Shown: positions 1,224 through 56,232 of the stretch, piece after piece | Layout: each line of letters begins with the position of its first letter | Position numbering within the stretch: the first letter of the stretch is position 1 | Assembly: GCA_016215315.1 (NCBI GenBank) | Contig: JACRKG010000045.1 | Location: 19,204-83,203 of the forward strand | DNA: 64,000 bases | Direction of reading: 5' to 3' | DNA from: Candidatus Woesearchaeota archaeon | GTDB lineage: Archaea; Nanobdellota; Nanobdellia; Woesearchaeales; ARS49 | Notes under the pieces: model-generated | What the model saw: the letters and a program-made list of their open reading frames with translations, nothing else | Told to the model about the DNA's origin: nothing | The model's database searches: none | Translations under genes and position numbers: made by a program

Positions 1224-1621
1224 AAGTTGTCATAACTTTAATTTCTTTTCTGAACCTTTTAGATTTTCCCCTGGTCGCCTGCAAATTAGTTCACGGTTCG
1301 CAGTTTATGGTTTACAGGACGCACTGCAAACTACGAACCATAAACTATGAACCTAAAGGCAGGCGGAACATAGACGCCGCGATAAAATACTGGGTATCTG
1401 AGGTATCATTTGATATCATAGACATTACTGGGTGTCGGGAGAATTGATAACAGAATAGTTTTAAAAGTGCACACTAAAAACTTATCTACTTTTTTATCAA
1501 CTGTTATTGTCGCCAAAACAATTAAAAAACTCAACATGCACATTCAGAAAGGCGACCTGAGCTAAGAAAATTTTCTTGAAATTTAATAAATTCTTTGAGA
1601 ATTTTAATATTATGGAGATTT

Positions 1622-2593
1622 TTAGTAGTGTTGTGTTATTTTTACTGGTGCATCTAATTCTTCTTTTAGTTTGTTTGCAAGAATTGTTGCACTTTCTAGA
1701 TATTGTTCAGACCAAACTCCTAATTCAATATAAGAAACTTTCTTAGAATTTGAAAAATTAATGTAATCGCATTCCACTGTAAGTCCATATGCAAATTTTG
1801 TTTTGAAAAATAGCTTGCACTCACTAACACTCAGAGGAATTCTCATTTCTCCATATTCATAATCGATAAACCAGGGTGAAGTATCTGACCCCCCAACACA
1901 AAAACCTTTTTCCAATTTTTGTTTTATTATTTTTTCCAATTCTTGTTTTACTTCTTCCAGGAGAGTTTCTTGTTTTTCTTCTCTTAATTTTCGCATAGCT
2001 TCATCTGACCTTACAAAAGTAACACGTAAAGTAACACGCGGTTCTTCAACCAACTCATTAATATTTGTTATTTTTTCTTCTCCTTTTTTTGCAGTTCCAA
2101 TTATTCCTTCTAGTTTTATCATTTTTTGGGCGTTTTCTTCAGTGCTAGTGTATTCTTTTGTTATTGTTGCTTCTTGTCCGCTCCATTTCTGGTATGCTTT
2201 TGCAAATGTTTTTGCGGGTTCTAGAAATCTTGAGTCATAAACTCTTATTTTTATTGGAGCAATTTCTGAGTTATCATTAATTATGTCTTGATATTTTTCA
2301 TCAGCTGTTTTTATAGTAACATAACGAGTAATACTATGTGGTATAAACATTCCGCCGTTCATTCTTCCTAAAACAAGTTGAGGTTTGTAATTAGTTTTGT
2401 CAGAGTAACAGTAAAAATAATCACAAGACGTAATACTAATATTTTTTTCAACACCTGAAAAAATATTTTTTAGCAAATAATCAAGTTCTTCCCTAAAACA
2501 ATCTGCTCCTTTATTTACTTCAACTTCTGGAAAGTCTTGTGATTCTAGTATTAATTTATCTAATTCTGTTTTATTTTGAACCATTGAAAACAA
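1622..2593 (-). CDS. Hypothetical protein (323 aa), first gene of minus-strand cluster with TA pair and NurA-like gene
   Basis: Long ORF, compact spacing with downstream genes; no motif recognised. Confidence 0.5.
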   Translation of the reverse strand: MFSMVQNKTELDKLILESQDFPEVEVNKGADCFREELDYLLKNIFSGVEKNISITSCDYFYCYSDKTNYKPQLVLGRMNGGMFIPHSITRYVTIKTADEKYQDIINDNSEIAPIKIRVYDSRFLEPAKTFAKAYQKWSGQEATITKEYTSTEENAQKMIKLEGIIGTAKKGEEKITNINELVEEPRVTLRVTFVRSDEAMRKLREEKQETLLEEVKQELEKIIKQKLEKGFCVGGSDTSPWFIDYEYGEMRIPLSVSECKLFFKTKFAYGLTVECDYINFSNSKKVSYIELGVWSEQYLESATILANKLKEELDAPVKITQHY

Positions 2594-2644
2594 TTAATTT
2601 GTTTTTGTTTAAAAACTTTTAAAACAGTTTAAAAAATGAGAATA

Positions 2645-3010
2645 TTACAATCGTATAAGACCTAAACTTATCTTTATCGCTTCGTCAATTCCGCTTTTTG
2701 TTTCAACGTCTAGTTCCCCTAGTTTTTTAATAAGTCTTCTTTTATCTACTGCTCTTATTTGATTAAGCAACGCTTTAGAATCTTTCTGCAGTCCTTTTCT
2801 TTTCTTTATAAAAACCTCAAAGGGATAGATTTTATCGACTTTTTGAGAAGTTACTGGCGCAATGATAGTTATTGGACTGTAAGTGTTTCCATAATCATTT
2901 TGAATAATTACTGCAGGTCTTGACTTTTTAATTTCATGACCAATAGTGGGATCTAAATTAACAAGCCAAATATCTCCTCGTTTAACTTCAAAAATTCTTA
3001 TTTCTACCAT
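2645..3010 (-). CDS. mazF: MazF/PemK-family type II toxin endoribonuclease
   Basis: GDIWLVNLDPTIGHEIKKSRPAVIIQND...SPITIIAPVTS signature of PemK/MazF. Confidence 0.8.
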   Translation of the reverse strand: MVEIRIFEVKRGDIWLVNLDPTIGHEIKKSRPAVIIQNDYGNTYSPITIIAPVTSQKVDKIYPFEVFIKKRKGLQKDSKALLNQIRAVDKRRLIKKLGELDVETKSGIDEAIKISLGLIRL

Positions 3011-3225
3011 TCTACTTCTTTAGAAGCAGTCTCCCACTCGTTTAAATTTGCCAAATCTTCTTTACCTAAACTAGAATAACCTGCAATTAATTTTTTTTTT
3101 AAATTCTCATGTCTTACTTGAAAAATTAATTTCTGAATTGCAACATCATAACTATCTCTTTTTAATCTTAATTTGTCTAAACTGTGTTTTGTTCTTTTGT
3201 GAAGTTTAATGGTTGTTATGTCCAT
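3004..3225 (-). CDS. Putative antitoxin partner of MazF-like toxin
   Basis: 73-aa ORF immediately upstream, 7-nt overlap with toxin start; typical TA arrangement. Confidence 0.5.
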   Translation of the reverse strand: MDITTIKLHKRTKHSLDKLRLKRDSYDVAIQKLIFQVRHENLKKKLIAGYSSLGKEDLANLNEWETASKEVEW

Positions 3226-3273
3226 AGTATACCAAAAGTATACCTATTATTTAAATTTTTCTATACTTCGGAA

Positions 3274-4221
3274 CTATTTCACCAAATTCAACTTATCATG
3301 CATATCCACGCTGGCCATGTGTTGATCAAAGTCTTTTTCATATTTTGTCAGCAAGTATAATTTCATTCTTTCTAATTCATCTTTATTTACTCTTGCCATT
3401 TTGTCTACGTCTATTAATGCATATGGATAGCCTGGAAAAATTAAATCAACACTGTTTTTTGCCAACAATTCTATTAATTCTTCACTGAACTCGCTAATAT
3501 CTAATCTAAAAACATATCTTGATTTCTTGTGCATTCGAACAAAAAATCTGTTGTCATCACATTTATAATACCATTTACTTAATTTTGCTAACTTACTAAG
3601 AACAACACTTGCGCTTTGGCTGTTATCACATAATATTGTAGATGTTTTACTTAATCCTGCAAGAACTACTTTCTTTTCTTTGCAAGTTTCTAACAATTCC
3701 TCATAATGAACTTTATCAAAATCATCAAATTCCAAATCGCCATCTCTAACAATAAAATCACAGTCCAACAATTTATTACATGCTTTAATTTCAAAGATTT
3801 TTCGAATCTTCTCAGCAATAACACTTGGCTTAATCAAGTGCTTGTTTTCGAACGCTTCGAAAACAAATGCATCTTTTTTATCGAAAAAAGTAACTTCATA
3901 AAAAATTCCTTCAGAATTTTTGAGATTAACCAGTATTAAAAATTCGTCGAGATTTTTTTTAATTCTTTTATTATCTTGGTAAACACTCCAATAAATTTTT
4001 ATTAATTGAACACTAAAATTAACTCCGCCAATTATTTCCCCATTACCCCCATCTACAAAACCAATCTTTTTAGTGGAAACTGTCTCGTTGATAGGAAAAA
4101 AAGAAGTTTTTTCTATAGGCACTTTTTTATTTGGAAGAATGATTTCTGAGGCAGCCACGGTAAAACTCTTTTTAAGGCTTTCAGCCACCTTGTCTAATTT
4201 TTCAAAATGCATAATTTTCAA
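3274..4221 (-). CDS. NurA-like (RNase H-fold) nuclease, tentative
   Basis: IGFVDGGNGEI motif resembling NurA vDGS active-site motif, acidic motifs DGDLEFDD, LIDVDK; size consistent with NurA; no herA neighbour. Confidence 0.35.
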   Translation of the reverse strand: MKIMHFEKLDKVAESLKKSFTVAASEIILPNKKVPIEKTSFFPINETVSTKKIGFVDGGNGEIIGGVNFSVQLIKIYWSVYQDNKRIKKNLDEFLILVNLKNSEGIFYEVTFFDKKDAFVFEAFENKHLIKPSVIAEKIRKIFEIKACNKLLDCDFIVRDGDLEFDDFDKVHYEELLETCKEKKVVLAGLSKTSTILCDNSQSASVVLSKLAKLSKWYYKCDDNRFFVRMHKKSRYVFRLDISEFSEELIELLAKNSVDLIFPGYPYALIDVDKMARVNKDELERMKLYLLTKYEKDFDQHMASVDMHDKLNLVK

Positions 4222-4375
4222 AAAATAAGCAGATTATTAAGTTTTATCTAGCTTTGCGAGTTTAAAAAAGTAAGATTTATAAATAAACACGTTTTCCCAC
4301 TGCAAGATGAGGGCCACGTTAGATTTACTTCTAGACATTAACAATATGTCTTAGGTAGATCTATAAAAAAATAGC

Positions 4376-4477
4376 GCTCTGGTAGTCTAGTGGCCTAGGA
4401 TGGAGCCCTGTCGAGGCTCCGACCCGGGTTCGAAATGGTTTAATGAGCTACAAACCAGGAATGTCCCGGCCAGAGCG
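4376..4477 (+). tRNA. tRNA-Asp(GTC) with about 29-nt intervening sequence in the T-loop (position 59/60-like)
   Basis: Acceptor GCTCTGG/CCAGAGC, anticodon stem GAGCC/GGCTC, loop CTGTCGA, T-stem CCGGG/CCCGG with TTCGAA-[29 nt]-T. Confidence 0.5.
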
Positions 4478-4492
4478 TAAGAAATATGTTGT

Positions 4493-4614
4493 GGGCCGGT
4501 AGCTCAGCCTGGTAGAGCACCTCACTTTTATCCTTCGGGAGGAAATGAGGTGGTCGCGAGTTCAAAACTTCATAACGCAAAAGTGCGTTTTGAGTGAACG
4601 TCTCGTCCGGCCCG
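4493..4614 (+). tRNA. tRNA-Lys(TTT) with two introns (14 nt at 37/38, about 34 nt in T-loop)
   Basis: Acceptor GGGCCGG/CCGGCCC, D-stem GCTC/GAGC, anticodon stem CCTCA/TGAGG enclosing CTTTTA+14 nt+A, T-stem GCGAG/CTCGT with TTCAAA-[34 nt]-T. Confidence 0.45.
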
Positions 4615-4878: not shown

Positions 4879-6352
4879 TTATTCATACTTATTAATAAAA
4901 AAATATTTTGACGAAAACAGTTTAGTACAATCAGATATAGAATCATTCAATGCGTTCATAGATGTTGAAATGCAAAAAATCATCGAAGAAAGCAAAGATG
5001 TAGAACCAACAATCATTCCTCCAGATGTTGAAAGTTTCAAAATAAGACTTGATAAAGTGTGGGTTACAAAACCACAAATTACAGAAGCAGACGGAAGTAA
5101 AAGAGCAATTTTCCCAGTAGAAGCAAGACTTAGAAAAATAACATACTCAGCACCAATATATTTGGAAGTAAGCTCTCACATTAATGATGTTCAAAGAGAA
5201 AGTTTCACAACACAAATCGGAAGCTTACCAATAATGCTTCACAGTAAATACTGCCACCTACACGGCATGAACAAAGATCAATTAATAGAAAAAGGAGAAG
5301 ACCCTGACGAACAAGGAGGATATTTCATAATTAACGGAACAGAAAGAGTTCTAGTAACGATGGAAGACTTAGCATCAAACAATTTCATAGTAGAAAAATC
5401 AAATTCGGGAGTTAGCAAGTACTTAGGAAAATTATTCTCAGAAAGAGGACCATTCAAAATACCACATACAATTGAAAGATTAAAAAACGGAATTTATTAT
5501 GCATCATTTACGAGAGTAAAAAGAGCTCCATTAATAGTTCTATTAAAAGCATTAGGATTGCTAAAAGATGAAGAAATAATGAATTTAATCTCAAGAAAAA
5601 AACAATACGATGAAGTACTAATCAATTTATTTGAATACGTAGCAATAAAAACAGACGAAGATGCAATGGACTACTTAGCAAAACTTATTGGAATAACACA
5701 AACAAGAGAAATAAGATTACAAAGAATGCAAGAAATAGTTGACAAGTACTTACTACCTCACGTTGGAACTAATAAAGAAGACAGACTAGTCAAAGCACAT
5801 AATTTATGCAAACTATTAAGCAAATACATTACAGTATCAAGAGGAGAAGCACCACTAGACAACAAAGACCACTACATGAACAAAAGACTGAAAATGAGCG
5901 GAGACCTACTAGCAGACTTATTCAGAATGAACTTAAAAGTACTAATTGATGACATATTATACAACTTCCAAAGAATAGTTAAAAGAGGAAAATTCCCGTC
6001 AATAAAAGTAATTATTCGTGACAAATTATTAACATCAAGAATTTACAGTTCAATGGCTACAGGAAACTGGGTTGGAGGAAGAAAGGGAGTATCACAAAGA
6101 ATCCAAAGACATAATTACTTAGACACATTAAGCCACTTACAAAGAGTTTCATCACCATTATCAAACACACAAGAAAATTTTGCAGCAAGAGAACTACACC
6201 CAACACACATAGGAAGACTTTGTCCTAGCGAAACACCAGAAGGAGTAAACATCGGACTAAAGAAAAACCTAGCACTATTAACTAGTGTTACATCACAAAC
6301 ACACGATCCAATGAATATTTTGTTAAACGCAGGACTAAAACCAATAAAATAA
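4865..6352 (+). CDS. rpoB2: RNA polymerase subunit B'' (N-terminal part of split RpoB)
   Basis: Rpb2 N-terminal-domain-like sequence, position directly after rpoH. Confidence 0.9.
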   Translation: MQMLDYSYLLIKKYFDENSLVQSDIESFNAFIDVEMQKIIEESKDVEPTIIPPDVESFKIRLDKVWVTKPQITEADGSKRAIFPVEARLRKITYSAPIYLEVSSHINDVQRESFTTQIGSLPIMLHSKYCHLHGMNKDQLIEKGEDPDEQGGYFIINGTERVLVTMEDLASNNFIVEKSNSGVSKYLGKLFSERGPFKIPHTIERLKNGIYYASFTRVKRAPLIVLLKALGLLKDEEIMNLISRKKQYDEVLINLFEYVAIKTDEDAMDYLAKLIGITQTREIRLQRMQEIVDKYLLPHVGTNKEDRLVKAHNLCKLLSKYITVSRGEAPLDNKDHYMNKRLKMSGDLLADLFRMNLKVLIDDILYNFQRIVKRGKFPSIKVIIRDKLLTSRIYSSMATGNWVGGRKGVSQRIQRHNYLDTLSHLQRVSSPLSNTQENFAARELHPTHIGRLCPSETPEGVNIGLKKNLALLTSVTSQTHDPMNILLNAGLKPIK

Positions 6353-8192: not shown

Positions 8193-10892
8193 ATGGCAAA
8201 AAAAGAAGAAATCACGGAAGAAGTAAAAGAAAAAACTGAAGAACTAAAAGAAAAAGAAGACGAAGTTCTAACTCCTGAAGAAAAAAACATACTTAAAGAA
8301 GCATTAAGCAGAGAAACAATAGAATCAACACAACAATACATAACTAAAAAAGTAAAAGGAGTAGTATTCGGAGTTCTATCACCAAAAATGATTAAGAAAA
8401 TGTCGACTGCTAAAATAGTAACTCCAGAATTATATGACAAAGAAGGATACCCAGTTGACGGCGGATTAATGGATATACGATTAGGAGTAATCGACCCAGG
8501 ACTAAAATGCAAAACTTGCGGATCAAAACTAAAAGAATGTATAGGACACTTCGGATACATAGAATTAGCAAGACCGGTATTCCACATCAAATTTGTAAGA
8601 CACATTTATGACGGCTTAAGATGCACTTGCAGAGAATGCGGCAGAATCTTAATGGCTGAAGACAAAATAAAAAAAACAATAAAAGAATACAAAAGAATAA
8701 AAGAAAAAGAAGGACTAGAAGCACTAAGACGCTTAACAAGATCAACAATCAGTCCACTAAAATCAGTGAGCAAATGTCCTCACTGTAAAGCAAAACAAGA
8801 AAAAATATTTTTAGTAAAACCATTAATGTTCAAAGAAGACGAGAAAAAACTAACATCAATACAAGTAAGAGCAAGACTTGAAAGAATACCTGACGAAGAC
8901 TCAGAAGTTTTAGGACTAAACCCAAAAGTAGTCAGACCAGAATGGACTGTGTTAACAGTACTACCAATACCACCAGTAACAGTAAGACCATCAATAACAC
9001 TAGAAAGCGGAGAAAGAAGCGAAGACGACCTAACACACAAATTAGGCGACATAGTAAGAATCAACCAAAGACTATTCGAAAACATCAACGCAGGAGCACC
9101 AGAAACAATCATAGAAGACCTATGGGACTTATTACAATACCACGTAACAACATTCTTTGACAACAACATACCACAACTACCTCCAGCAAGACACAGAGGA
9201 GGACAACCACTAAAAACAATCACGGAAAGAATCTCAAGCAAAGAAGGAAGAATAAGACACAACCTAGCAGGAAAAAGAACAAACTTCTGCGCAAGAACAG
9301 TAATCAGCCCAGACCCAATGTTAGGAATCAATTACGTAGGAGTGCCATTCATAGTAGCAATGAAAGTTACAGTTCCAGAAGTAGTAAACGAATGGAACAT
9401 GAATTACTTAAAAAAATTCGTCCAAACAGGACCAAAAGAATACCCTGGAGCAAACTACATAGTAAGACCTGACGGAAAAAAGAAAAAAGTAACAGAAGAA
9501 ACAAAAGAAGCAATGTTAGAAGAATTACAACCCGGATACAAAGTAGAAAGACACTTAATGGACGGAGACATAACAATCTTCAACAGACAACCAAGCTTAC
9601 ACAGAATGAGCATGATGTGCCACAAAGTAAAAGTATTACCATACAAAACACTAAGACTAAACCCGGTTGTTTGTGCTCCTTACAACGCAGACTTTGATGG
9701 AGACGAAATGAACTTACACGTCCCACAAACAGAAGAATCAAGAGCAGAAGCAGAAATATTAATGCAAGTACAAACACAAATAGTAAGCCCAGGATACGGA
9801 CTAAGTGTAATAGGATGCTTACAAGATGCAATATCAGGAAACTTTATACTAACAAGAGACTTAACATTAGAAAGAGAAAAAGCAGTAGAACTATTATGCG
9901 CAGTAGGAATAACAGACTTCAAAAAATTACCAAACAAAAAAACAATCACGGGAAAAGAAATATTCAGCATGCTATTACCAGACGACTTAGATTTCCAAGG
10001 AGCAAGCAAAGCAGGAGAACCAGTATTAATCGAAAAAGGAATACTAAAAGAAGGAGTAATGGACCAAAAAACAATCGGCGGAGAAGGAGAAGGACTCTTA
10101 CTAAGATCACTACACAAACAATACGGTCCAGACGCAACAATCGAAATCTTACAAAGAATACTAAGACTAGGAATAGAAGTATTACTACAAAGAGGATTCA
10201 CAGTAAGCTATTCAGAAACAGAATTACCACCAGAAACAGTTGAAGAAATAAACAAAACACTAAACGTAGCAGAAGAAGATGTACAAAAAGTAATCCAATC
10301 ATTCCACGACGGCTCACTAGAAACATTCCCAGGAAGAACACTAAAAGAAACACTAGAAATGAAAATAGTAGAAGTACTAAACAAAGCAAGAAACTTATGC
10401 GGAAGCATAATAAAGAAAACAATAAACAAAAAAACACACATCTCAATGATGGCAGAAAGCGGAGCAAGAGGAAACATACTAAACGTAGTACAAATGAGTG
10501 CCTGTGTAGGACAACAAGTACTTAGCGGTAGAAGAATAGAAAAAGGATTCAGCAAAAGAACACTAGCATGCTTCAAACAAGGAGACTTATCACCTGAAGC
10601 AAGAGGATTCGTAAGAAGCTCATTCAAAAAAGGACTAAACCCAAGAGAATTCTTCTTCCACTCAATCACTGGTAGAGACGGATTAATGGACACAGCACTA
10701 AGAACACCAAAATCAGGATACTTATACAGACGTCTCGCAAACGCAATGCAAGACCTAAAAGTAGAATACGACGGAAGCGTAAGAGATGCAGCTAACAGAA
10801 TAATACAGTTTTCATACGGAGAAGATGGACTAGACGTTTCAAAAACAGAAAGCGGAAAAATAAATATTAAAAAAATAATACAAATGGCTTAA
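8193..10892 (+). CDS. rpoA1: RNA polymerase subunit A'
   Basis: [10 protein letters not shown] catalytic motif, zinc-binding Cys clusters. Confidence 0.95.
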
Positions 10893-10893
10893 A

Positions 10894-12015
10894 ATGGTAC
10901 ACGCAGACTTAAAAGAATACATTGGAAAATTACCTAGTTCAATAATTCAAGAACTAGAAGAAACTTGCCCAGCATCAAAAATGAAGAAAGTAGCAAAACT
11001 AGTTCATGAAGAATTTGAAAACTCAAGAATATCACCTGGAGAAGCAGTAGGACTAATCAGTGCAGAAAGTATTGGAGAACCAGGAACACAAATGACGTTA
11101 AACACATTCCACTTTGCCGGAGTAGCTGAAATGAGCGTCACAAAAGGATTGCCTAGAATAATAGAAATCCTAGACGCAAGAAAAACCATTTCAACACCAA
11201 CAATGGAAATTTACTTACACGCTCCATACAACAAAGGAAAAGACATAAGAGAAATAGCAATGAGAATAAAAGAAACAAACATGGAATCAGTGGCAAAAGA
11301 TTTTGCCATCAATGTTGTCGACTTAAAAATGGAAACAACACTCGACGCAGAAAAACTAGAAAAACTAGAATTAAACTCCAAAAAAGTACAAAAAATATTA
11401 GAAAAAGCACTAGCAAAAGAAGCAAACGTAGAACTAAACGGAGACAAACTAGAAATTTCATTAAAAGGAAAAGAAAAAGACCTAAACCAATTATACAAAT
11501 TAAAAGAAGCAATCAAAGACGTATACGTTTGCGGAATAAAAGGAATAAAACAAGTACTACCCGTAAGAAGAAAAGAAGACTACATAATCATAACAGCAGG
11601 ATCAAACTTAAAAAAAGTATTCGAACTAGACTTTGTTGACTCATCAAGATCAACATCAAACGATATTCACGAAATAAAAAAAATATTAGGAATAGAAGCA
11701 GCAAGACAAGCAATAATTGACGAATTATTACAAGTTGTAGAAACACAAGGATTAAATGTAGACGTAAGACACTTAATGCTTGTCGCAGACACAATGTGCA
11801 TATCGGGAGACATAAAAGGAATAACAAGATACGGAGTAGTCAGTGAAAAAGCAAGTGTTCTAGCAAGAGCAAGCTTTGAAACACCAATAAAACACTTAAT
11901 AGAAGCATCAGTAATAGGGGAAATAGATTACTTAAACTCAGTAGTAGAAAACGTAATGCTAAACCAACCAGTACCATTAGGAACAGGAATGGTAAAATTA
12001 GTATCAAAAAAATAA
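10894..12015 (+). CDS. rpoA2: RNA polymerase subunit A''
   Basis: Rpb1 C-terminal region homologue, follows rpoA' with 1-nt gap. Confidence 0.9.
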
Positions 12016-14007: not shown

Positions 14008-14064
14008 TTCTTTCTTGAATTTGTTAAAAACTCTATTTTGTTTCTTATCTTACTTAAATTTTCT

Positions 14065-14183
14065 CAGTTTCAGTCGCCACGAAGAGTGTGCCAGTAGAGT
14101 TTCTTAATTATTCTAGCGACAAAGACAGTTGATAAAAAAGTAGAAAGAATTTTTTGAGTGCACGTGAATTACTTTTCAGTTAT
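14065..14183. repeat. Copy A of a repeated non-coding element (agtagagtttcttaat...gcgaca...ataaaaa...ttttgagtgcac...acttttcagttat)
   Basis: Aligns along about 120 nt with 37347-37470; ends in the 37-bp direct repeat 14147-14183. Confidence 0.6.
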
Positions 14184-15861: not shown

Positions 15862-17349
15862 TCAAAAACCACTACCGCTGGAGAAACTTCCTCCACCGAA
15901 TCCTCCGCCGCTTGAATGAGATCCGCCTCCGAATCCTCCGAAAGAAGAACTGCTACTTGAACTGTGATGACTGCTACTTCCTCCAAATCCACTGCTAAAT
16001 CCTCCAAATGAAGAACTGTCGCTATCATAAGAGTATGAAGGTCTTGGTTTTGGTTTAAATCTTTGATTTGCTTCAATTTGAGACCAAACACTGGTGTTTG
16101 TTATTCTTCCTAACAAGTATCCTGCAATCAATGAATCCATATCAAAACCACTTTCAAAATAAGATCTGCTTCCTTCATAATCCTTACTTCTATAATTATT
16201 TAAAATACTGTTCAGTCCATCTAATTTGTTGCTCACAGCATCTCTGGCTGCAATTGTTTCTTTTGCGTTATCTTTAAAATTTCTAACTTCAGTATCAATC
16301 TGTTCCATTCTATTAACTAAAGCATCATCCCTTGAGTCTGGAGTTTCTTTTGCCATTCTTTTTAAGTCTGCAATTGAATCTCCTTTCAAAAAATCTTTAA
16401 TTCTTTTAACTGCTTTCTCGTAATATTCTCCTTTAGTTGTATCTAATTCTTTTCTGTCTTGAGTGCATCTTTGGTATGCTTCTTCTTTTTGTTTTATTCT
16501 TTGAAGAATTTTTTCCCTTTCGTCACCTAAACTTGCTCCTTCCTTCATTACTTTAGGCAAGCCATAACTTTCTTGAACTTCTTTAACCATTGCTTCAACT
16601 TTAGAAGCAACTTCCTTGTAAGCACTTTGTCTTCTTTCTAATTCTGCGTCCATTAATTCTGGCATCATCATTAAAAAATCATAATTCTTTTTATTTTCTT
16701 CAAAATTAACTAACCTTGCAACTGCTCGGTCCCAATTTCTAACTAATCTTCCATGATTGTATAATGGTGCAGGTTTTCCAAATTGTCTGTTTACTAGATA
16801 CATAAATAATTCGTTACTTTTGTATGCTTCAAGTTTCTTTTTTGCATCAGCTTTGAATTGTTCTAATGTTGTTTTGTTTTCAGCCAATTCTTTTCCTTTT
16901 ACTTCAGCTGTAGCATTTAATTGAGGATATTCATCTCTTCCAGCCAATTCAGCGTTAACTTTTTCAACTATTGCATCCCTCTCTTCTGCTTTTTGGTTTA
17001 ATTGATCTGTTACAACTGCTAATCTTGATTCTAGAAGTCCTTTATCGTTAAGTGCAGACTGCATTTGACCTTCTAAGCTTTCTCTGAGTGCTTGTTTTTG
17101 TCTAAATACATCTTTTACTTGCGCTTGAACTTGTTTTAAAGTTGTTTCAACTGATTTAGCGTCAAGTTCTGGTAAGTAAATGAGTGCTAAATTACTTAAA
17201 CACCTTTCTCTTTCATTCATTAAAGAATCAATTTTGTTCTCATAATTAGTTAGTTGAGTGCTTAAACTATTTTGTTTTGATTGCAACTCATTCACTTTTC
17301 CTCTAATTTTACTCTCTCCGTCGCTTCCGCTTATACTCATTTTTACCAA
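15862..17349 (-). CDS. Coiled-coil protein with C-terminal Gly/Ser/Phe-rich low-complexity tail
   Basis: Heptad-rich helical segments; tail SYSYDSDSSSFGGFSSGFGGSSSHHSSSSSSSFGGFGGGSHSSGGGFGGGSFSSGSGF. Confidence 0.6.
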   Translation of the reverse strand: MVKMSISGSDGESKIRGKVNELQSKQNSLSTQLTNYENKIDSLMNERERCLSNLALIYLPELDAKSVETTLKQVQAQVKDVFRQKQALRESLEGQMQSALNDKGLLESRLAVVTDQLNQKAEERDAIVEKVNAELAGRDEYPQLNATAEVKGKELAENKTTLEQFKADAKKKLEAYKSNELFMYLVNRQFGKPAPLYNHGRLVRNWDRAVARLVNFEENKKNYDFLMMMPELMDAELERRQSAYKEVASKVEAMVKEVQESYGLPKVMKEGASLGDEREKILQRIKQKEEAYQRCTQDRKELDTTKGEYYEKAVKRIKDFLKGDSIADLKRMAKETPDSRDDALVNRMEQIDTEVRNFKDNAKETIAARDAVSNKLDGLNSILNNYRSKDYEGSRSYFESGFDMDSLIAGYLLGRITNTSVWSQIEANQRFKPKPRPSYSYDSDSSSFGGFSSGFGGSSSHHSSSSSSSFGGFGGGSHSSGGGFGGGSFSSGSGF

Positions 17350-18833
17350 CTCGTAATTTGACCCGTTCTTTGTGATACTCCTGGAAATTTAACTACTTCT
17401 TTTAAGTATCCTGCTTTCTTTTCTGAAAATAAAGTTTTATCAACACGACCATTATCCATTTTATCCGCTTTTACTGCTTCGTACACTTCAGAAGGAACTC
17501 TCTCTCCCCACATTCTAACTGAATGAATTTGCCCACTTTGTTCGTCAGTATTTTCTATTTGTCTGGCAATTGTGTTCCCATTTTGATCTACTGCTTCAAC
17601 TATCAAATAAAATCCTGCCAGTCTTTTTCCTGCGTTGTCGGTGTAATATCTATCAATTCCGCTTTTAACGCCAGATTTGTTAACAATTCTTACAGTATAC
17701 TCTTGTTTCAAAACAGCATCCAAACTTTCTAATGATGCAATTGTTGTTTTCAAAGAAGCAATATCAACACTGCTAACGTAATTTCTTCCTTTAGTATGTA
17801 AGTCTTCTGCTTGAGAATTTGCTTCTGGATCTTGTGATACAATTCTTACCGAACTATAAACTTGCTCTAATCTTGCAGGCAATGTTTCAAATTCTTTAAC
17901 GCCTAATTTTATTTCAACTAATTGTTGTTTGTAATTTATTCCTTCTTGTAATTGTCTATTTGTTATGCTTGCAATACCACTGTCATAAGCACTTTGTGCT
18001 TTTGTTCTTAATACTGCTGGTGGATTGCTGCTTTTTATTTCTTGAATTAAAGAATCTAAACTCTGTCTTGTTGCTACTAAATCTTGTTCTGTTCTAATCA
18101 ATCCTTGGCCAGTATTCACTTTGCCTTTAACGGTTGCAAGAACTCCATTGATAGAATCTAATTTTTGTTCTGCTTCTTTATAATTACTTTGATTAATATC
18201 ATCACTTGCTGTGCCATCATCACAATATGTTTCAAAAAAATCATCAGTGCTTCTTAAGTTGTCCCCTGCATTTCTAATTAATTCAGTTAATTCAGTAGAA
18301 TCAGGTAATGAATTTTTTTGAGAATTTAAGTCCTTGATTTGGTTTGCTAAATTTAATCTTGCTTTGTAACTGTCTTCAACAGCACTTTCAACACCGCTTT
18401 CTGCAGCTCTTAATGTTATTGCATTTACAGCAATTGAACCAACATAAACTATTGTTGATAATGCTAAAACAGCCAAAGTAGGAATTCCATATTTTCTTCC
18501 TATTCTTGCTCTGTTAACGTAAGCTCTTGCTAGTTTTGTTGAGAATGTATTTTCAGGTCCTTGAAAAACATAGAACTCATCAAAATATCTTTGAACTGCT
18601 AAATCGGTAGCTTCTTCACTACGATCTGATCCAGTGAATTTGTTTGAAGAGAGAAGTTTTTGTTTATATTTTTCTTTTAATTGATTGACGTTAAATTGTT
18701 CTGCAGCACTATCCATTAATTTTTGGATATCATCAGCATCTGCATTAATCTTCAATGTTTTTACCATTTCAGGATTAACAGGAATGTCTCCAACCATACC
18801 ATCTTTTGCTATTTCTTGATCTTGTTGAGTCAT
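17343..18833 (-). CDS. Membrane-anchored coiled-coil protein (single TM around residue 118-140)
   Basis: Hydrophobic helix IPTLAVLALSTIVYVGSIAVNAITL; 7-nt overlap with downstream gene. Confidence 0.6.
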   Translation of the reverse strand: MTQQDQEIAKDGMVGDIPVNPEMVKTLKINADADDIQKLMDSAAEQFNVNQLKEKYKQKLLSSNKFTGSDRSEEATDLAVQRYFDEFYVFQGPENTFSTKLARAYVNRARIGRKYGIPTLAVLALSTIVYVGSIAVNAITLRAAESGVESAVEDSYKARLNLANQIKDLNSQKNSLPDSTELTELIRNAGDNLRSTDDFFETYCDDGTASDDINQSNYKEAEQKLDSINGVLATVKGKVNTGQGLIRTEQDLVATRQSLDSLIQEIKSSNPPAVLRTKAQSAYDSGIASITNRQLQEGINYKQQLVEIKLGVKEFETLPARLEQVYSSVRIVSQDPEANSQAEDLHTKGRNYVSSVDIASLKTTIASLESLDAVLKQEYTVRIVNKSGVKSGIDRYYTDNAGKRLAGFYLIVEAVDQNGNTIARQIENTDEQSGQIHSVRMWGERVPSEVYEAVKADKMDNGRVDKTLFSEKKAGYLKEVVKFPGVSQRTGQITSW

Positions 18834-48524: not shown

Positions 48525-48800
48525 TTGGACTGCTTTTTTTCTTCAACCCAATATTTATTCTCACTTATCTTTCATAAGAATATGAAAAATAAAAAAATAA
48601 AAAAGCAAAAAAACAGATATAGGTTCAACTTTATTGAAGAAGAACCGGCAGTTTCTTTTTGTGAAATTTGCGGCGTCCCTTCAAAAGACGCTAAAGTAAT
48701 GTTTTCTAGAAAATTCAAGTGCGAAATTTGTACAACCTGCTACGAGGAAAGACTAAATGAAAACACAGGGGATGTTATAGATCCAAAATGGTGGAAATAA
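48525..48800 (+). CDS. Zinc-ribbon small protein
   Basis: CEICG...CEICTTC. Confidence 0.4.
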   Translation: MDCFFSSTQYLFSLIFHKNMKNKKIKKQKNRYRFNFIEEEPAVSFCEICGVPSKDAKVMFSRKFKCEICTTCYEERLNENTGDVIDPKWWK

Positions 48801-48831
48801 AAGTTCAAAAATATCAAGGAGGAAAAACAAA

Positions 48832-49251
48832 ATGACAAATGAAATACAAAAATATGATCCGCAGGCTTTTGCGGCGCAGAGAGTTTATGACAGGCTCACA
48901 GAGCCTTTAGAAGATTTAACGTCAGTTCAACAGATTAACACTATTGCTGTAGGTGTTGGAAACTTGAAAAGAACTCTTGAAGAAGTAGTTGAAAAGTTAA
49001 AAGACAAAGCTGTTGACGAACAAAAGAAAGTCGTTGGAGAAAAAGACGATAAAGTGCAAAATGTTTATTCTGGACTTGATAAAGCCAGAAGAACTAACGA
49101 CTTTGAAATGTACGACAAAGTGAGCATGGATGTAATCAGAGCAATCATGCAGGCTAAAGGCTCAGTTTCTGATTTGAGATTGTTACAAGCTGGAGATTTT
49201 GATGGTTACGTGAAAAGTCAAAAACTTCTTACAGAAGGTGATGCGAAATGA
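48832..49251 (+). CDS. Hypothetical protein
   Basis: AGGAGG SD. Confidence 0.45.
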   Translation: MTNEIQKYDPQAFAAQRVYDRLTEPLEDLTSVQQINTIAVGVGNLKRTLEEVVEKLKDKAVDEQKKVVGEKDDKVQNVYSGLDKARRTNDFEMYDKVSMDVIRAIMQAKGSVSDLRLLQAGDFDGYVKSQKLLTEGDAK

Positions 49252-49778
49252 ATGATTTAGACCAAAAACTCAAACAGTATGAGACTACTGCTGTTGATGT
49301 TACTAACAAAATGTATGATCCTAATCTCAGAACTGAGAGCAGCAAAGAGGTTTTAGAGAATTTTCCGAATGTCAGGCTGGCTTCGGAAAAACAAGAAAAC
49401 AAAGCAGTTATTGGGCGGAAAGGAATTAATTTCCTTTCTGCCTTATTTTTATCAGCAGGAATAGGCATCGGAGGATACTTTGTTGGCAACTATCAAGGAA
49501 AACATCATGGATTCGAGAAAGGACAAGAAATATTACTGAGAGAAATTACAAGAAATTATTTCGACAGCAAAACAAGAAGTTATCTAGGGCATGAAAGGTT
49601 TTACACAAAAATAATGAGTCCTGCAATTCTTGGAAGGGAACCGACAAGCAAAGAGTTTGATATAATTCTTGATGAAGTACTAAACACTATTGTTCCAGAA
49701 AGCGGCTTGCCTCTAAGAGAACACATAACTGAAAGTTCAAAACATGGCTACTTTTATTTTGGAGGTGTAAAAAAATGA
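49248..49778 (+). CDS. Hypothetical membrane-associated protein
   Basis: One TM (INFLSALFLSAGIGIGGYFVG). Confidence 0.45.
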   Translation: MNDLDQKLKQYETTAVDVTNKMYDPNLRTESSKEVLENFPNVRLASEKQENKAVIGRKGINFLSALFLSAGIGIGGYFVGNYQGKHHGFEKGQEILLREITRNYFDSKTRSYLGHERFYTKIMSPAILGREPTSKEFDIILDEVLNTIVPESGLPLREHITESSKHGYFYFGGVKK

Positions 49779-50170
49779 AAGCAATACAAATTTTCTTTTT
49801 TTCTTTACTTTATTTTTTAGTTTATTTAACAATAAGTTTGGCTATTGATTTGTATTTCGGCTTAGAAACGAGTATTCCTGAACTTGTAACTATTGGTTTG
49901 ATGTTTAACCTTTTACTGATTGTTTTGCTTGTTTTTGAAGTTCCAGACAAGATTGCTGAAAAGTTTGCCAGAAAAAAGGAAAGTGTTTTGTTCTACATAA
50001 CTGAAGACGTAAAAGATGATAAAAATACTTCTGAATTGTTGGAAACTCTTGAAGGAAACGCAACAAAAATAGAATCCCCTAAGAAGTCTGAAGAAAAATC
50101 CAATGAGAAAATCATAGAAGCTGAATTTGTGAAACAAGTTCAAGATCAAAAAGAAGAAAACATATACTGA
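49775..50170 (+). CDS. Membrane protein
   Basis: Two N-terminal TM helices. Confidence 0.45.
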   Translation: MKAIQIFFFSLLYFLVYLTISLAIDLYFGLETSIPELVTIGLMFNLLLIVLLVFEVPDKIAEKFARKKESVLFYITEDVKDDKNTSELLETLEGNATKIESPKKSEEKSNEKIIEAEFVKQVQDQKEENIY

Positions 50171-50182
50171 GGAGGTAAAAAA

Positions 50183-50533
50183 ATGGAAACAATTAACATT
50201 TTGCTTAAAATTTTGATGTACATTTTAATAATTACAACCCCATTAATACTTGGGTCAAAATTAGTTAACGCTTACCCTTACAATACTATCAGCAGTCAGG
50301 ATCAGCAAAAGATTGACGAAATCATGGCTCCATTCAACAAAGTATTCAATTTCGTTAGAATCGCAGCTGGTTCTGTAGCAGTTTTTGTTCTTATTTTAGC
50401 TGGAGTGGTTTACATGACTGCTGGAAGTGATGTTGGAAAGAAAGAGAAAGCCAAAAACATGGCCACCGGAGTTATTGTTGGACTAATGATTTTTGTTGTA
50501 GCACCAACAGCAGTACAATACCTAATAACTTGA
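50183..50533 (+). CDS. TrbC/VirB2-like pilin candidate
   Basis: 116 aa, long signal/TM, second hydrophobic helix near C-terminus, GGAGG SD. Confidence 0.4.
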   Translation: METINILLKILMYILIITTPLILGSKLVNAYPYNTISSQDQQKIDEIMAPFNKVFNFVRIAAGSVAVFVLILAGVVYMTAGSDVGKKEKAKNMATGVIVGLMIFVVAPTAVQYLIT

Positions 50534-50543
50534 GGAAAAAATA

Positions 50544-51491
50544 ATGAAAAAACAATCTAGATACTTACAAGTATCAATAATTTTAATTGCATTATTGCTC
50601 ACTTTTAATTCAGTTAGTGCGAGCCACAATGATGATGAAGAACCTCCAGATAAAGGCTTTTTTGGCAACATCTTTGATGACTTAACTGATGCAATAACTG
50701 CAATACCTGAGATGTTATTAGATTTGTTTCTCGACATAATTAACGCTCCAATTAGACCTTTATTGAGTTTTATTAAAACTCTTCTAGGTGAGCCACCGAG
50801 CACAAGTATTTTTAAAAGTATTTGGAGTATAGTTGTCTACATTTTCAGTTTTTGTTTTAGTTTGATTCTTGTTTTTTGCGGTTTCAGTTTTATTCTTTCA
50901 GGGCATGATGTTGAGAAAAGAGAAAAAGCTAAAGATTGGCTAAAAAACACATTAATATTGATTATTTTGTTGCCTGCAAGTTACTTTATTTATGAATTAA
51001 TTCTTCAATTTAGTGCAGGACTTACAAATTTTGTCTTAAACATAATACGTCCAGAATTTTTTTTAATAACTTCAAATAATCTTGGAGATATTTTCTTAAG
51101 CCTCGCGTTATCAATACCTTACTTAATTGTCTTGTTATTAACTGGCATTGTTTTAGTTATTCGTTATGCACTCATTAGTGCAGGAGTGATATTTTTTCCT
51201 ATAGGAATCTTTTTTTATTTCATCAGTCCACTTAAAAGTTATGGTAGTTTTATAATTAATTTTTTGATGATAAATATATTTATAGGTTTCATTAACGCAT
51301 TGTTTTTGCTTGCATTTTCTAAGCTTGTTGAACTACCTGTATTTAGTACTTTGAAAATTCTAGTCATGATCTCAGCTTTTTTGATTATTGATTTAATAAC
51401 AATTTTTGCGATGGTTTTCGCACTCATCAAAGCAGCAGTAAACTTCGGAAAGACCGTTGTTAATCCAGTAGTTAAAATTGTAAAACCATAA
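50544..51491 (+). CDS. Polytopic membrane protein (VirB6/TrbL-like candidate)
   Basis: Signal peptide plus at least 6 TM helices. Confidence 0.4.
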   Translation: MKKQSRYLQVSIILIALLLTFNSVSASHNDDEEPPDKGFFGNIFDDLTDAITAIPEMLLDLFLDIINAPIRPLLSFIKTLLGEPPSTSIFKSIWSIVVYIFSFCFSLILVFCGFSFILSGHDVEKREKAKDWLKNTLILIILLPASYFIYELILQFSAGLTNFVLNIIRPEFFLITSNNLGDIFLSLALSIPYLIVLLLTGIVLVIRYALISAGVIFFPIGIFFYFISPLKSYGSFIINFLMINIFIGFINALFLLAFSKLVELPVFSTLKILVMISAFLIIDLITIFAMVFALIKAAVNFGKTVVNPVVKIVKP

Positions 51492-51495
51492 AAAA

Positions 51496-52449
51496 ATGAA
51501 TGATACTCAAACTTTTCGGAAATTGAATGTTGTTGACTTCTTTTGCGGAGCTGGAGGATTCAGCAAAGGTTTCGAGCAAGCAGGCTTCAACATATTGGCA
51601 GGAATAGATTTTAATGAGAATGCAATAGCCACGTTCAAACAAAATCATTCTGGTAAAGGGGTTGTCAGGGACATAAAAAAGTTGTCTCTAAAAGAGTTTA
51701 ATGAGCTCACAGGATGTTCTGGCGTCGATGTTTTGATCGGTGGCTTTCCGTGTCAAGGATTTAGTCTTCTTGGGAAGCGTAACAAAAAAGATCCTAGAAA
51801 TCTTTTATACAGAGAATTATTACGTTTCATTGAAGGATTAAAGCCTGAGTTTGTTATTCTTGAAAATGTGAGGGGTTTGGCTTCAATGAAGGATTCTAAA
51901 AATAATTCTGTTTTATCCTCTATACTGCAAGAAATTATTTCACTAGGTTACTGTGTTAGTTACAAAGTTTTGCTGGCAAGCGATTATGGAGTTCCACAAA
52001 ACCGTGAGCGATTAATCATTTTTGCACAGAAAATAAACTTTTTTGACATTCCAAAAATTGAAAATAAAACAACAGTGATTGAAGCTTTGCAAAACATTCC
52101 TGAAGGATTAAATGCTCACATTGTTGTAAATCATAAGCCAGAATATTCTGAGCGTTTAGCACAAGTTGCACAGGGTAAAAGTCTTGGAAAATTCAGATCT
52201 TGCATGAGACTTCAGGCAGATAAGCCAAGCAACACAATAACGAGCGGAGACTTAATACATCCAACACTCAATCGTTTCTTAACTCCTAGAGAAAGCGCGC
52301 GATTACAAGGTTTTAGCGACGATTTTGTTTTTTGCGGTGGAAGAGAAAGTATCAAGTTGCAAATTGGTAATGCAGTTCCTCCACTACTTGCTAAAGTTCT
52401 TGCAAATCAGCTATTAGCTGAGATTAATCGAGGTGTTTCAAATGTATGA
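51496..52449 (+). CDS. dcm: DNA (cytosine-5)-methyltransferase, no adjacent restriction enzyme recognised
   Basis: Motifs I FFCGAGGFS, IV GFPCQGFS, VI ENVRGL, VIII QNRERL, X GNAVPP. Confidence 0.9.
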   Translation: MNDTQTFRKLNVVDFFCGAGGFSKGFEQAGFNILAGIDFNENAIATFKQNHSGKGVVRDIKKLSLKEFNELTGCSGVDVLIGGFPCQGFSLLGKRNKKDPRNLLYRELLRFIEGLKPEFVILENVRGLASMKDSKNNSVLSSILQEIISLGYCVSYKVLLASDYGVPQNRERLIIFAQKINFFDIPKIENKTTVIEALQNIPEGLNAHIVVNHKPEYSERLAQVAQGKSLGKFRSCMRLQADKPSNTITSGDLIHPTLNRFLTPRESARLQGFSDDFVFCGGRESIKLQIGNAVPPLLAKVLANQLLAEINRGVSNV

Positions 52450-55195: not shown

Positions 55196-56232
55196 TAGAT
55201 AACGAATTATTTATTATTTCACTGTTTCTTATAGGAACTCCTTTAATTATTATAGGTTTCGTAAACACTAATTATTACATCATTCCAAATTTTTCAATGT
55301 ACAATTTATTTCTTGCCTTGCCGGGATTTGTTGGCATAATTGTATTCATTTGCGTTTTAACATACCTAATTCTAAAGATTTTTCACTTAGTACAGTATTT
55401 GTTTGTCCGGCGTAAAATAATTAGTTTAAAACAAAAAGAACAAACAATAAAAACACATCAAGAAAATCACATTGCTAAATTAAGCGAAGAGTTAGATAAA
55501 ATATTTCTTGAAGCAAAACCATTACTAAAAGCAGAAAACACCTTTGAAAACAAGCAAAAACTTGAAGAAATACAAAAAGAATTATTACAATCAAAATTCA
55601 AAGACTTAGAATTACACAAGAAAAGAATTCAATACGTTCAACAAATCGGAGAAAAAGTAAGAGAAATAGAAATCTACTTGAAAAGTAAAGAAAAAGAAAT
55701 ATTAGGTAAAGAAGAACAAAGATTAAAAGAATTAAAAGCAGAATGTGGGTACGTCAAAGGCGCAAAATTATCTGATTGGGATAAAGAATTGTTATTAAAA
55801 AGAGGTTTTGCCAAATTACAATGTAATGAGTTTTGTGGACGTGGAAATCCAGTATATTTCTTAAAACCGAGAGATAAAGAAACTCCAGAGCACTTCTTTT
55901 TAGTTAGGCATACTCAAGAATATCTTGAAAATAAAGGGATAACTGCAACAACACCTGAAAAAAGAGATGCAGATGTTATCTTTGAAATAAATGGAGTAAC
56001 TTATGCAATAGAAGTTGAAACTGGAACTTATCCTGAGAAGAAACCTGAAGAATTTGAAAATAAAATAAAACAATGCAATGACAAATACGGCAACAATTGG
56101 ATGTTTTTAGTGGTTCATAGAGATCTTATTTCATTCTATAAAAAGTACAATGCAAAAACATATCATCGTGAACAGATGGTGGAGGTGCTGGATGTAATAA
56201 CATCAACAAATCACATCAACAAAAATAATTGA
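55177..56232 (+). CDS. Membrane-anchored coiled-coil protein with C-terminal possible nuclease-like domain
   Basis: 2 N-terminal TM, K/E coiled coil, C-terminal DADVIFEINGVTYAIEVETG block. Confidence 0.45.
   Translation: MPENSLIDNELFIISLFLIGTPLIIIGFVNTNYYIIPNFSMYNLFLALPGFVGIIVFICVLTYLILKIFHLVQYLFVRRKIISLKQKEQTIKTHQENHIAKLSEELDKIFLEAKPLLKAENTFENKQKLEEIQKELLQSKFKDLELHKKRIQYVQQIGEKVREIEIYLKSKEKEILGKEEQRLKELKAECGYVKGAKLSDWDKELLLKRGFAKLQCNEFCGRGNPVYFLKPRDKETPEHFFLVRHTQEYLENKGITATTPEKRDADVIFEINGVTYAIEVETGTYPEKKPEEFENKIKQCNDKYGNNWMFLVVHRDLISFYKKYNAKTYHREQMVEVLDVITSTNHINKNN

Follow-up and report, generated by a model that had tools for sequence, protein, structure and literature searches.

A NurA-domain nuclease gene, a MazEF pair and a fast-evolving protein gene as a probable juxtaposition of independent units in a woesearchaeal genome

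The closest described counterparts of the genes studied here are the archaeal nurA-herA-mre11-rad50 operon, TdpAB (PDB 8wet), the type II toxin–antitoxin (TA) systems of the MazF/EndoA kind (YdcE/EndoA-YdcD), and the TA-rich variable hot spots termed defence islets. TdpAB is a defence pair made of a HerA-like ATPase and a NurA-like nuclease and, to our knowledge, the known NurA-like defence nucleases all act with an adjacent HerA-like ATPase. A preliminary description of DNA from a Candidatus Woesearchaeota archaeon (the whole stretch, 64 kb long, is called the window below) had proposed that four of its genes may be either a small defence system or a TA module joined by an accessory nuclease.

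Relative to these systems, the locus shows both likenesses and differences. Its NurA matches the whole NurA domain above the Pfam cut-off, is 28–31% identical to homologues within complete nurA-herA-mre11-rad50 operons, and has the invariant D/E/D/H, SKT and GYPY motifs in common with them. It is, however, approximately 50–70 residues shorter than the operon type (310–333 versus 360–385 aa), has no detectable sequence match to solved NurA structures, and belongs to a clade that, unlike the operon type, never adjoins herA, mre11 or rad50 and instead neighbours the RNA polymerase operon. As in TdpAB, a NurA-like nuclease lies outside the classical repair operon, but its match to TdpB is non-significant (E = 0.19) and no HerA-like partner adjoins it. 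The RP..IQND and T(S/A)Q blocks of MazF align with those of YdcE/EndoA and, as in MazF/EndoA systems, a small antitoxin gene with overlapping stop and start lies directly upstream, with a repeat-bearing promoter region that would be consistent with autoregulation. The pair differs from YdcE/EndoA-YdcD in its host, a DPANN archaeon, and in an antitoxin that matches no curated antitoxin family above threshold. Finally, the interval between NurA and hldE resembles a defence islet in that its cargo differs among related genomes and comprises two TA types across relatives (MazEF here, UPF0175/DUF3368 in L006), whereas the cargo here amounts to three genes only and includes no recognised defence gene. 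We noticed no recombinase or integrase gene in this slot.

Layout and genomic setting

ORF calling lists four minus-strand reading frames, at 1622–2593, 2645–3010, 3004–3225 and 3274–4221, which upholds the gene positions given at the outset. The two outer frames open with TTG (323 and 315 aa). NCBI gene models and homologue alignments place the starts of their products, U323 and NurA, at internal ATG codons (2584 and 4212), which gives proteins of 320 and 312 aa (Table 1). The gaps are therefore 60 nt between MazF and U323 and 48 nt between NurA and the antitoxin, with a 7-nt overlap between antitoxin and MazF. The tight packing noted in the preliminary description holds. This tightness is no more than the background spacing, as same-strand neighbours in the window have a median gap of 10 nt and 69% of such pairs lie at most 60 nt apart. 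Proximity is consequently weak information in this compact DPANN genome. The 48-nt and 60-nt spacers exceed the median, and only the antitoxin/MazF pair overlaps.

Table 1. Positions of the features within the window.
Feature	Positions	Strand	Basis
NurA-domain nuclease gene, 312 aa	3274..4212	-	PF09376, synteny, invariant residues
Putative MazEF promoter/operator	3227..3255	-	read from sequence; identical block in sister MAG
Antitoxin (MazE role), 73 aa	3004..3225	-	position, size, overlap with MazF
MazF/PemK endoribonuclease toxin, 121 aa	2645..3010	-	PF02452, EndoA/YdcE structure match
TATA-like box TTTTTAAA before U323	2608..2615	-	read from sequence
U323, 320 aa	1622..2584	-	member of DPANN-restricted multi-copy family

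The flanks also agree with the sugar-nucleotide gene and tRNA/rpo locus named earlier: an hldE-like gene (PfkB plus cytidylyltransferase) lies on the left, and two intron-bearing tRNAs followed by rpoH and a split rpoB lie on the right. Both tRNAs were spotted by eye, and ARAGORN recovers them only once their introns are removed in silico.

The nuclease gene beside the RNA polymerase operon

The suspected NurA similarity holds: the protein matches PF09376 at 30.7 bits (gathering cut-off 21) over profile positions 2–254 of 254, and the motif GFVDGGNGEI is found at residues 54–63. The NCBIfam model NurA_Sulf gives a weak C-terminal match (E = 1.8e-5, far under its cut-off of 400). Across 17 homologues, including members of canonical nurA-herA-mre11-rad50 operons, D57, E144, D160, K192, H308 and G264-Y-P-Y267 are invariant. 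Going by published NurA structures, we take D57, E144, D160 and H308 to be candidate catalytic or metal-binding residues. PDB searches with the single sequence and with a profile reached no solved NurA, and the top profile match, to TdpB, covers the E..DG..SKT core.

The synteny of rpoH and NurA is retained in four related MAGs (L003, L004, L006, L012), and NurA is a conserved anchor gene adjoining the tRNA/rpoH operon. The window contains no HerA gene, in line with the orphan status first ascribed to this nuclease. Three candidates in the window were rejected: two ORFs of approximately 495 aa (15862–18833), one with no Pfam match and the other a DUF6384 protein, and a 920-aa ORF (52433–55195), the only one in the window with a DUF87 domain, which is a VirB4/TraG-like ATPase. 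Among 80 further NurA loci, HerA adjoins NurA in 9 (8 of them Nitrososphaeria/Bathyarchaeia-type), a HerA-type ATPase lies 2–3.7 kb from NurA in 3, and none was found in the fetched flanks of the other 68. Some Woesearchaeota are among those with an ATPase (DUF87 plus HerA_C) at 2–3.7 kb. When at least 2.5 kb is available on both sides, HerA is absent from 44 of 49 loci. NurA without an adjacent HerA is therefore the norm for this clade, and its stand-alone position beside the RNA polymerase operon is a consistent trait of the closest woesearchaeal relatives. A literature search on NurA, HerA and DPANN returned nothing on a stand-alone NurA.

This protein would thus be the lineage's ordinary NurA-type nuclease, retaining the invariant Asp/Glu/Asp/His set, whose gene appears to have parted from herA-mre11-rad50 in this clade and normally stands alone. 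Its role is most likely DNA-end processing, presumably together with a HerA-type ATPase whose gene lies at another place in the genome. It is a speculative and improbable suggestion that the shortened woesearchaeal NurA, being unlinked to HerA, functions without such a partner. Across Woesearchaeota/Nanoarchaeia, herA is commonly dispersed, which bears on DNA-end processing in reduced genomes.

The MazEF pair and the U323 family

The identification of a MazF-like toxin with an upstream antitoxin was sound. MazF matches PF02452 at 117 bits (cut-off 23) and 28 MazF/Kid/EndoA sequences of the PDB (best E = 9e-25). Its alignment with the Bacillus subtilis EndoA/YdcE structures (E = 1e-24) spans 111 residues and includes T54 as well as R31, which belongs to the conserved RP..IQND block. 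The NCBI annotation already calls the gene a PemK/MazF toxin. The antitoxin ORF, whose stop overlaps the MazF start, is kept with MazF in the sister MAG; compared with the copies there, the antitoxin is 86% identical (dN/dS 0.13) and MazF has a dN/dS of 0.05. The antitoxin has a weak N-terminal match to the Pfam family DUF7557 (18 bits, under the cut-off of 25), no match in NCBIfam, PHROGs or the PDB, and none in a plasmid collection searched by tblastn. The two genes probably form a canonical type II TA operon, translationally coupled through the overlap, in which MazF is a predicted sequence-specific endoribonuclease that would be neutralised by a labile antitoxin.

Both spacers contain promoter-like blocks. 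Read directly from the sequence, a TATA-like TTTAAATA lies at 3255–3248 (minus strand), upstream of the antitoxin ATG at 3225, and two GGTATAC half-palindromes (3244–3238 and 3233–3227; GGTATAC-N4-GGTATAC) follow just before this ATG. The sister MAG has exactly this block, while the sequence adjoining it upstream, around where the NurA gene ends, is divergent. We interpret the block as a putative MazEF promoter and operator, where the antitoxin probably exerts autorepression by way of the two repeats. In the other spacer, a T-run after the MazF stop precedes the TATA-like box TTTTTAAA, 24–31 nt upstream of the U323 ATG, and the block ATTTTTTAAACTGTTTTAAAA with the ensuing TTTTAAA is conserved in the sister MAG. 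This box is a candidate promoter, from which U323 would probably be transcribed on its own. AT-rich promoter-like motifs, on which both promoter assignments are based, are common in this genome of approximately 30% GC.

Pfam, NCBIfam, PHROGs and PADLOC offer nothing meaningful for U323, nor does any PDB profile match it, so that the initial view of a protein with no recognisable domain stands. Its profile matches to Saf4/Yju2 (17.8 bits) and DpdC (E = 0.2) were judged to be noise. The protein consists of two duplicated alpha/beta domains separated by a charged, low-confidence linker, and the N-terminal domain has a confident AF2 fold. A first AF2 model, from a three-sequence alignment, was unusable (pLDDT 48). 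Twenty family members, about 14–66% identical to U323, share the motifs and the two-domain architecture, and three genomes retain the U323 reading frame at full length. Only F130 and Y134 are invariant family-wide, with A127 and G139 nearly so. The family lacks conserved polar or catalytic residues, and a binding or adaptor role is therefore likelier than an enzymatic one. U323 is also the least conserved gene of the neighbourhood: it is 65.5% identical in amino acids to the sister-MAG copy, with a dN/dS of 0.42 over 313 aligned codons, against 0.02–0.18 for its neighbours.

The family is very rare. A word-indexed search with a 20-sequence profile returned four proteins only, scans of metagenome and viral contigs gave no match, and neither did a tblastn search of the plasmid collection. 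The same MAG encodes the paralogues HZA97_07525 and HZA97_00590, and one same-MAG paralogue is seemingly split into pieces of 37 and 308 aa. Other genomes carry tandem arrays of three and five copies, and further copies neighbour a gene for PPDK or for an RNA-binding protein and lack an accompanying TA. Distant members have a portable KKRHNPE peptide, membrane anchors or a Ser/Thr kinase; the KKRHNP motif was not found in the window or in 0.97 Mb of NurA loci. U323 is one copy of an undescribed, DPANN-restricted, multi-copy and fast-evolving family, whose two-domain proteins diversify rapidly and amplify in tandem. Families that evolve fast and amplify in tandem often take part in symbiont–host or mobile-element conflicts. 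That this one, which has no known relative in fold, represents a novel class of DPANN component acting in conflict or host interaction is a speculative and rather doubtful suggestion. As the founder of an unannotated family, U323 makes a systematic census worthwhile, given the conflict links of such families.

TA-like pairs neighbour members of the family in three separate contexts. Besides MazEF at the present locus, these are a pair of PIN and MazE type in L094 and, in L095, a gene for a Polbeta-type nucleotidyltransferase and its small, unannotated partner. This recurrence could hint at a link.

Conservation across genomes and the nature of the locus

Bounded on one side by the conserved tRNA/rpoH-rpoB-rpoA block and on the other by the hldE sugar-nucleotide genes, the slot varies among related genomes. 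A sister MAG (L003 and L001), 97–98% identical in RpoB, has the identical order NurA, 73-aa gene, MazF, U323 and hldE, and is the sole relative with MazEF and U323 in the slot. In L004, whose NurA is 67% identical, the slot is occupied by four unrelated opposite-strand ORFs. L006/L007 (NurA 63% identical) has UPF0175 paired with DUF3368 there, and L012 (68%) has an Lrp/AsnC-type regulator among other genes. Three of the L004 ORFs (260, 331 and 335 aa) were considered as U323 relatives and rejected because BLASTP showed no relation. The neighbourhood is wholly different in L008 (NurA 44% identical). MazF, the antitoxin and U323 are missing from all 80 further NurA loci, which together span 0.97 Mb, and neither MazF nor NurA occurs at the other U323-family loci examined, tandem arrays included. 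The co-occurrence across distinct genomes expected of a multi-gene module is thus seen in one sister MAG only. In PADLOC-DB 2.0 none of the four proteins was matched significantly; DpdC came closest, at E = 0.2.

We conclude, with a probability of roughly three in four, that the locus is a juxtaposition of three independent units (NurA, MazEF and U323) and not one system. The main value of this result is to keep a false candidate defence system out of the catalogues. Since all four genes have the same order and strand in the sister MAG, co-transcription or functional coupling is possible within this sub-lineage. That the four genes make up a single defence or TA system, with NurA as the DNA-degrading effector and MazEF and U323 as regulators, would fit their co-directional, compact arrangement, its preservation in the sister MAG, and the existence of NurA-like nucleases in defence systems, of which TdpB is the best, non-significant, PDB match. 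But NurA is anchored to the rpo operon and followed by different genes in related genomes, its three companions are missing from all 80 further loci, no HerA-like ATPase adjoins it, PADLOC finds nothing meaningful, and the spacing is ordinary for this genome. The lack of co-conservation, a test set in the preliminary description itself, largely refutes this proposal, which follows the reading given there, and we give it hardly any credence.

A three-gene unit of MazEF with U323 as accessory third component, to which NurA would be unrelated, is somewhat likelier, though we still consider it unlikely. Possible roles for U323 would then include target mimicry, chaperone-like stabilisation, and sensing coupled to MazF release. 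The order and spacer of MazF and U323 are conserved in the sister MAG, relatives of U323 adjoin other TA-like pairs (L094, L095), and its dN/dS fits a conflict-related protein. Yet the paralogues in tandem arrays adjoin another copy and no toxin, those beside PPDK or the RNA-binding protein gene lack a TA, U323 has its own conserved TATA-like box beyond the T-run that follows the MazF stop, and PADLOC offers no meaningful match. Variable regions commonly harbour TA genes, whose adjacency to U323 may thus be due to chance. The low conservation of U323, the rarity of its family and the seemingly split paralogue would suit a decaying, non-functional ORF left by a mobile element, which would leave only NurA and MazEF functional. 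This is very unlikely, as the dN/dS is well under 1 over the aligned codons, the frame is intact in three genomes, motifs and architecture persist across the 20 members, and the N-terminal domain folds confidently in AF2.

Layout of the four genes

The four-gene cluster is ordinary, consisting of a MazEF pair, a lineage-typical NurA, and one member of an uncharacterised family (U323). It lies in an 88.9-kb contig of a Candidatus Woesearchaeota MAG (locus tags HZA97_). The ORF listing has the four minus-strand genes exactly where the preliminary description put them, and the flanks also agree, so that the observation is confirmed. On the evidence of homologue alignments and of public gene models, two of the genes begin at internal ATG codons, giving 320 aa for U323 and 312 aa for NurA. 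On the left, an hldE-like gene (PfkB plus cytidylyltransferase) is convergent with U323. On the right, two tRNA genes precede rpoH, a split rpoB, and rpoA. The compactness of the cluster is uninformative because short same-strand gaps are usual across the window: 69% of same-strand neighbours are at most 60 nt apart (median gap of 10 nt), and the other operon-like runs have gaps of at most 12 nt or overlapping genes.

Coordinates of the cluster and of further features in the window and comparison loci
Feature	Position	Strand	Remark
U323	2584-1622	-	start from homologues and gene models
Spacer MazF/U323			60 nt
MazF	3010-2645	-	from ORF listing
Antitoxin	3225-3004	-	7-nt overlap with MazF
Spacer NurA/antitoxin			48 nt
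NurA	4212-3274	-	start from homologues and gene models
hldE/U323 spacer	1224-1621		398 nt, between stop codons
Repeated element, window	1447-1573		
Repeated element, window	14056-14183	-	
Repeated element, L001 (sister MAG)	3995-4123		
Repeated element, L093 (comparison locus)	5596-5714		
First tRNA gene	4374-4479	+	between NurA and rpoH
Second tRNA gene	4493-4614	+	between NurA and rpoH
rpoA''	10894-12015		373 aa, no intein
Two overlapping ORFs	15862-18833	-	~495 aa each
Packed gene run	~48800-56230	+	
T4SS-pilin-like protein	50544-51491	+	in packed run
Dcm-type C5 cytosine methyltransferase	51496-52449	+	in packed run
PrgI plus VirB4/TraG-like ATPase	52433-55195	+	920 aa, in packed run

NurA, its neighbourhoods, and HerA

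The identification of a NurA-like nuclease holds: the protein scores above the PF09376 gathering threshold, and the match spans the whole profile. Across 17 aligned homologues the invariant positions are D57 (within the VDGGN motif spotted from the sequence), E144, D160, K192, H308, and GYPY 264-267. Its homology to bona fide NurA is secure, because the distant members of the alignment (28-31% identical) are located in complete nurA-herA-mre11-rad50 operons. The comparison covered another 80 NurA loci, together 0.97 Mb, taken from contigs with one genome per species; the queries run against their six-frame ORFs were the window proteins plus HerA, Mre11, and Rad50 of the comparison locus L010. 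HerA lies within 300 nt of NurA in nine loci, eight of them from Nitrososphaeria or Bathyarchaeia, and a DUF87 plus HerA_C ATPase lies 2-3.7 kb away in three others, all Woesearchaeota-type. Neither was found in the fetched flanks of the remaining 68, and both are absent in 44 of the 49 loci having at least 2.5 kb on each of the two sides. Since HerA is missing around most of the 80 loci, a NurA without adjacent HerA is the norm for the Woesearchaeota/Nanoarchaeia clade and not peculiar to this cluster. Given that the lineage does possess HerA-type genes, dispersal of the operon explains this most simply; NurA would then process DNA ends together with a HerA encoded at another site in the genome.

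The same loci bear on the proposal of a toxin–antitoxin module with an accessory nuclease, which fails the co-occurrence test. The four-gene order is kept, split across two contigs, in the sister MAG (GCA_053530895.1, RpoB 97-98% identical). In more distant relatives NurA remains beside rpoH, and the interval between NurA and hldE varies: it holds four unrelated ORFs on the opposite strand in L004, a UPF0175/DUF3368 pair in L006 and L007, and an Lrp/AsnC-type regulator plus other genes in L012. A NurA at 44% identity has a wholly different neighbourhood, and MazF, the antitoxin, and U323 were found in none of the 80 loci (six-frame ORFs). NurA is anchored, and the cargo changes.

The synonymous sites of NurA are nearly saturated between the copy in the window (3274-4212) and that in L003 of the sister MAG (10001-10939; pS 0.70, dS ~2), the flanking genes giving pS of 0.18-0.48. 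An allele that is older or was acquired by exchange may explain this, as may unusual codon usage.

MazEF, U323, and the reading of the cluster

MazF matches PF02452 (117 bits) and aligns over 111 residues with Bacillus subtilis EndoA/YdcE (E 1e-24), an alignment in which the RP..IQND and T-S/A-Q blocks coincide; NCBI already annotates it as a PemK/MazF toxin. The only profile match of the 73-aa antitoxin, DUF7557, is sub-threshold, and a PDB search returned no relative. It has the position, size, 7-nt overlap, and acidic, Trp-containing C-terminus expected of a MazE-role antitoxin. In the upstream spacer, TTTAAATA lies at -30 to -23, and the ATG is directly preceded by two GGTATAC repeats with TTTT between them; the sister MAG has an identical copy of this TTTAAATA/GGTATAC block within diverged sequence. 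We infer a putative promoter with an autoregulatory operator. Following the standard type II mechanism, MazF would cleave RNA, and the 73-aa protein would neutralise it and autoregulate the pair.

U323 is the sole truly unknown element of the cluster. As initially noted, it has no recognisable domain: none of 20 members of the family alignment match Pfam, and the family profile has no match in the PDB. A word-indexed search of 5.8 billion proteins returned U323 itself and two relatives only, and a full profile search covering 1.84 billion representatives gave 22 proteins at E ≤1e-3. Its halves share a terminal strand-helix-strand unit (xIxVYxxxxLExAxxFAxxYxxxxGxxVxI), an internal duplication recovered by profile-profile alignment (95% probability, E 2e-8). 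The family-wide invariant residues (F130 and Y134, with A127 and G139 nearly so) are hydrophobic or glycine, so that an enzyme is unlikely; U323 would be a non-enzymatic binding protein of a diversifying family. The same MAG has two more paralogues, one of which lies ~13 genes to the left of the window and seems to be split, and the sister MAG also has a 473-aa copy. Three tandem copies occur on one 1.9-kb contig and five in another Woesearchaeota MAG (L094 7136-11943), beside a PIN/MazE-type pair and a Fic gene. A mobile and almost unchanging KKRHNPE(I/M)T peptide, absent from the window, occurs in many distant members (P0033-P0051), at the N-terminus in some and in the inter-domain linker in others. 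In some, C-terminal hydrophobic helices replace the second domain, and another member is a fusion with a Ser/Thr kinase.

The best reading, to which we give a probability of about three in four, is that three independent transcription units stand side by side in a variable slot. In each of the two spacers a TATA-like box lies at ~-30 to -24 relative to the start codon and is retained in the sister MAG, and a T-run follows the MazF stop. That MazEF and U323 form a tripartite unit is improbable. Three U323-family loci adjoin TA-like pairs, namely MazEF in the window, the PIN plus MazE-type pair of L094, and in L095 a Polbeta-type nucleotidyltransferase gene whose small partner is unannotated; others have none alongside, and the adjacency may be due to chance. 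It is less probable still that U323 is a decaying ORF. It is the fastest-evolving gene of the neighbourhood in the comparison with the sister MAG (65.5% amino acid identity, dN/dS of 0.42, against 0.02-0.18 for its neighbours), and at this ratio it is clearly still under purifying selection. A defence module of all four genes, the other initial suggestion, is the most remote of these alternatives, none of the four proteins meaningfully matching a PADLOC model. Under the reading as three units, the proposed module is of low interest, and a modest residual interest attaches to the U323 family and the HerA-unlinked NurA clade.

Further features of the window

Both tRNA genes have non-canonical introns and are undetected by ARAGORN and Rfam on the intact sequence. 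The first is called as tRNA-Asp(GTC) only once a ~27-nt stretch of the T-arm region (~4431-4458) is deleted. In the second, ~33 nt (~4563-4596) and a 14-nt anticodon-loop intron must be removed; its identity is Lys(UUU) by eye and Ser by ARAGORN. Because a GTG-started 94-aa rpoH ORF would overlap this second gene, rpoH most likely starts at ATG 4636 (80 aa).

The sister MAG lacks the hldE/U323 spacer, its two genes overlapping instead. In the window the spacer includes a long, strongly stable hairpin (~1275-1365; MFE of -62.5 kcal/mol over 1255-1450, z -4.4). An intergenic element of ~110-130 nt is repeated, with copies 70-75% identical. Its GTGCAC and CTTTTTTATCAAC boxes are conserved and precede a GTCGCC...GGCGAC stem, in which one change is compensatory. 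Rfam returned nothing for this element, which may represent either a small RNA gene under a promoter of its own or a miniature repeat.

The window's rpoA'' is free of inteins, like that of L006. Those of two related MAGs, in L003 (637-3291) and L004 (781-3447), encode 884-888 aa and include an intein bearing a LAGLIDADG homing endonuclease. One of the two overlapping ORFs carries DUF6384 (162 bits); Pfam gave no match for the other. The packed run could represent an integrated element of conjugative or secretion type; if true, this would be unusual for a DPANN archaeon.
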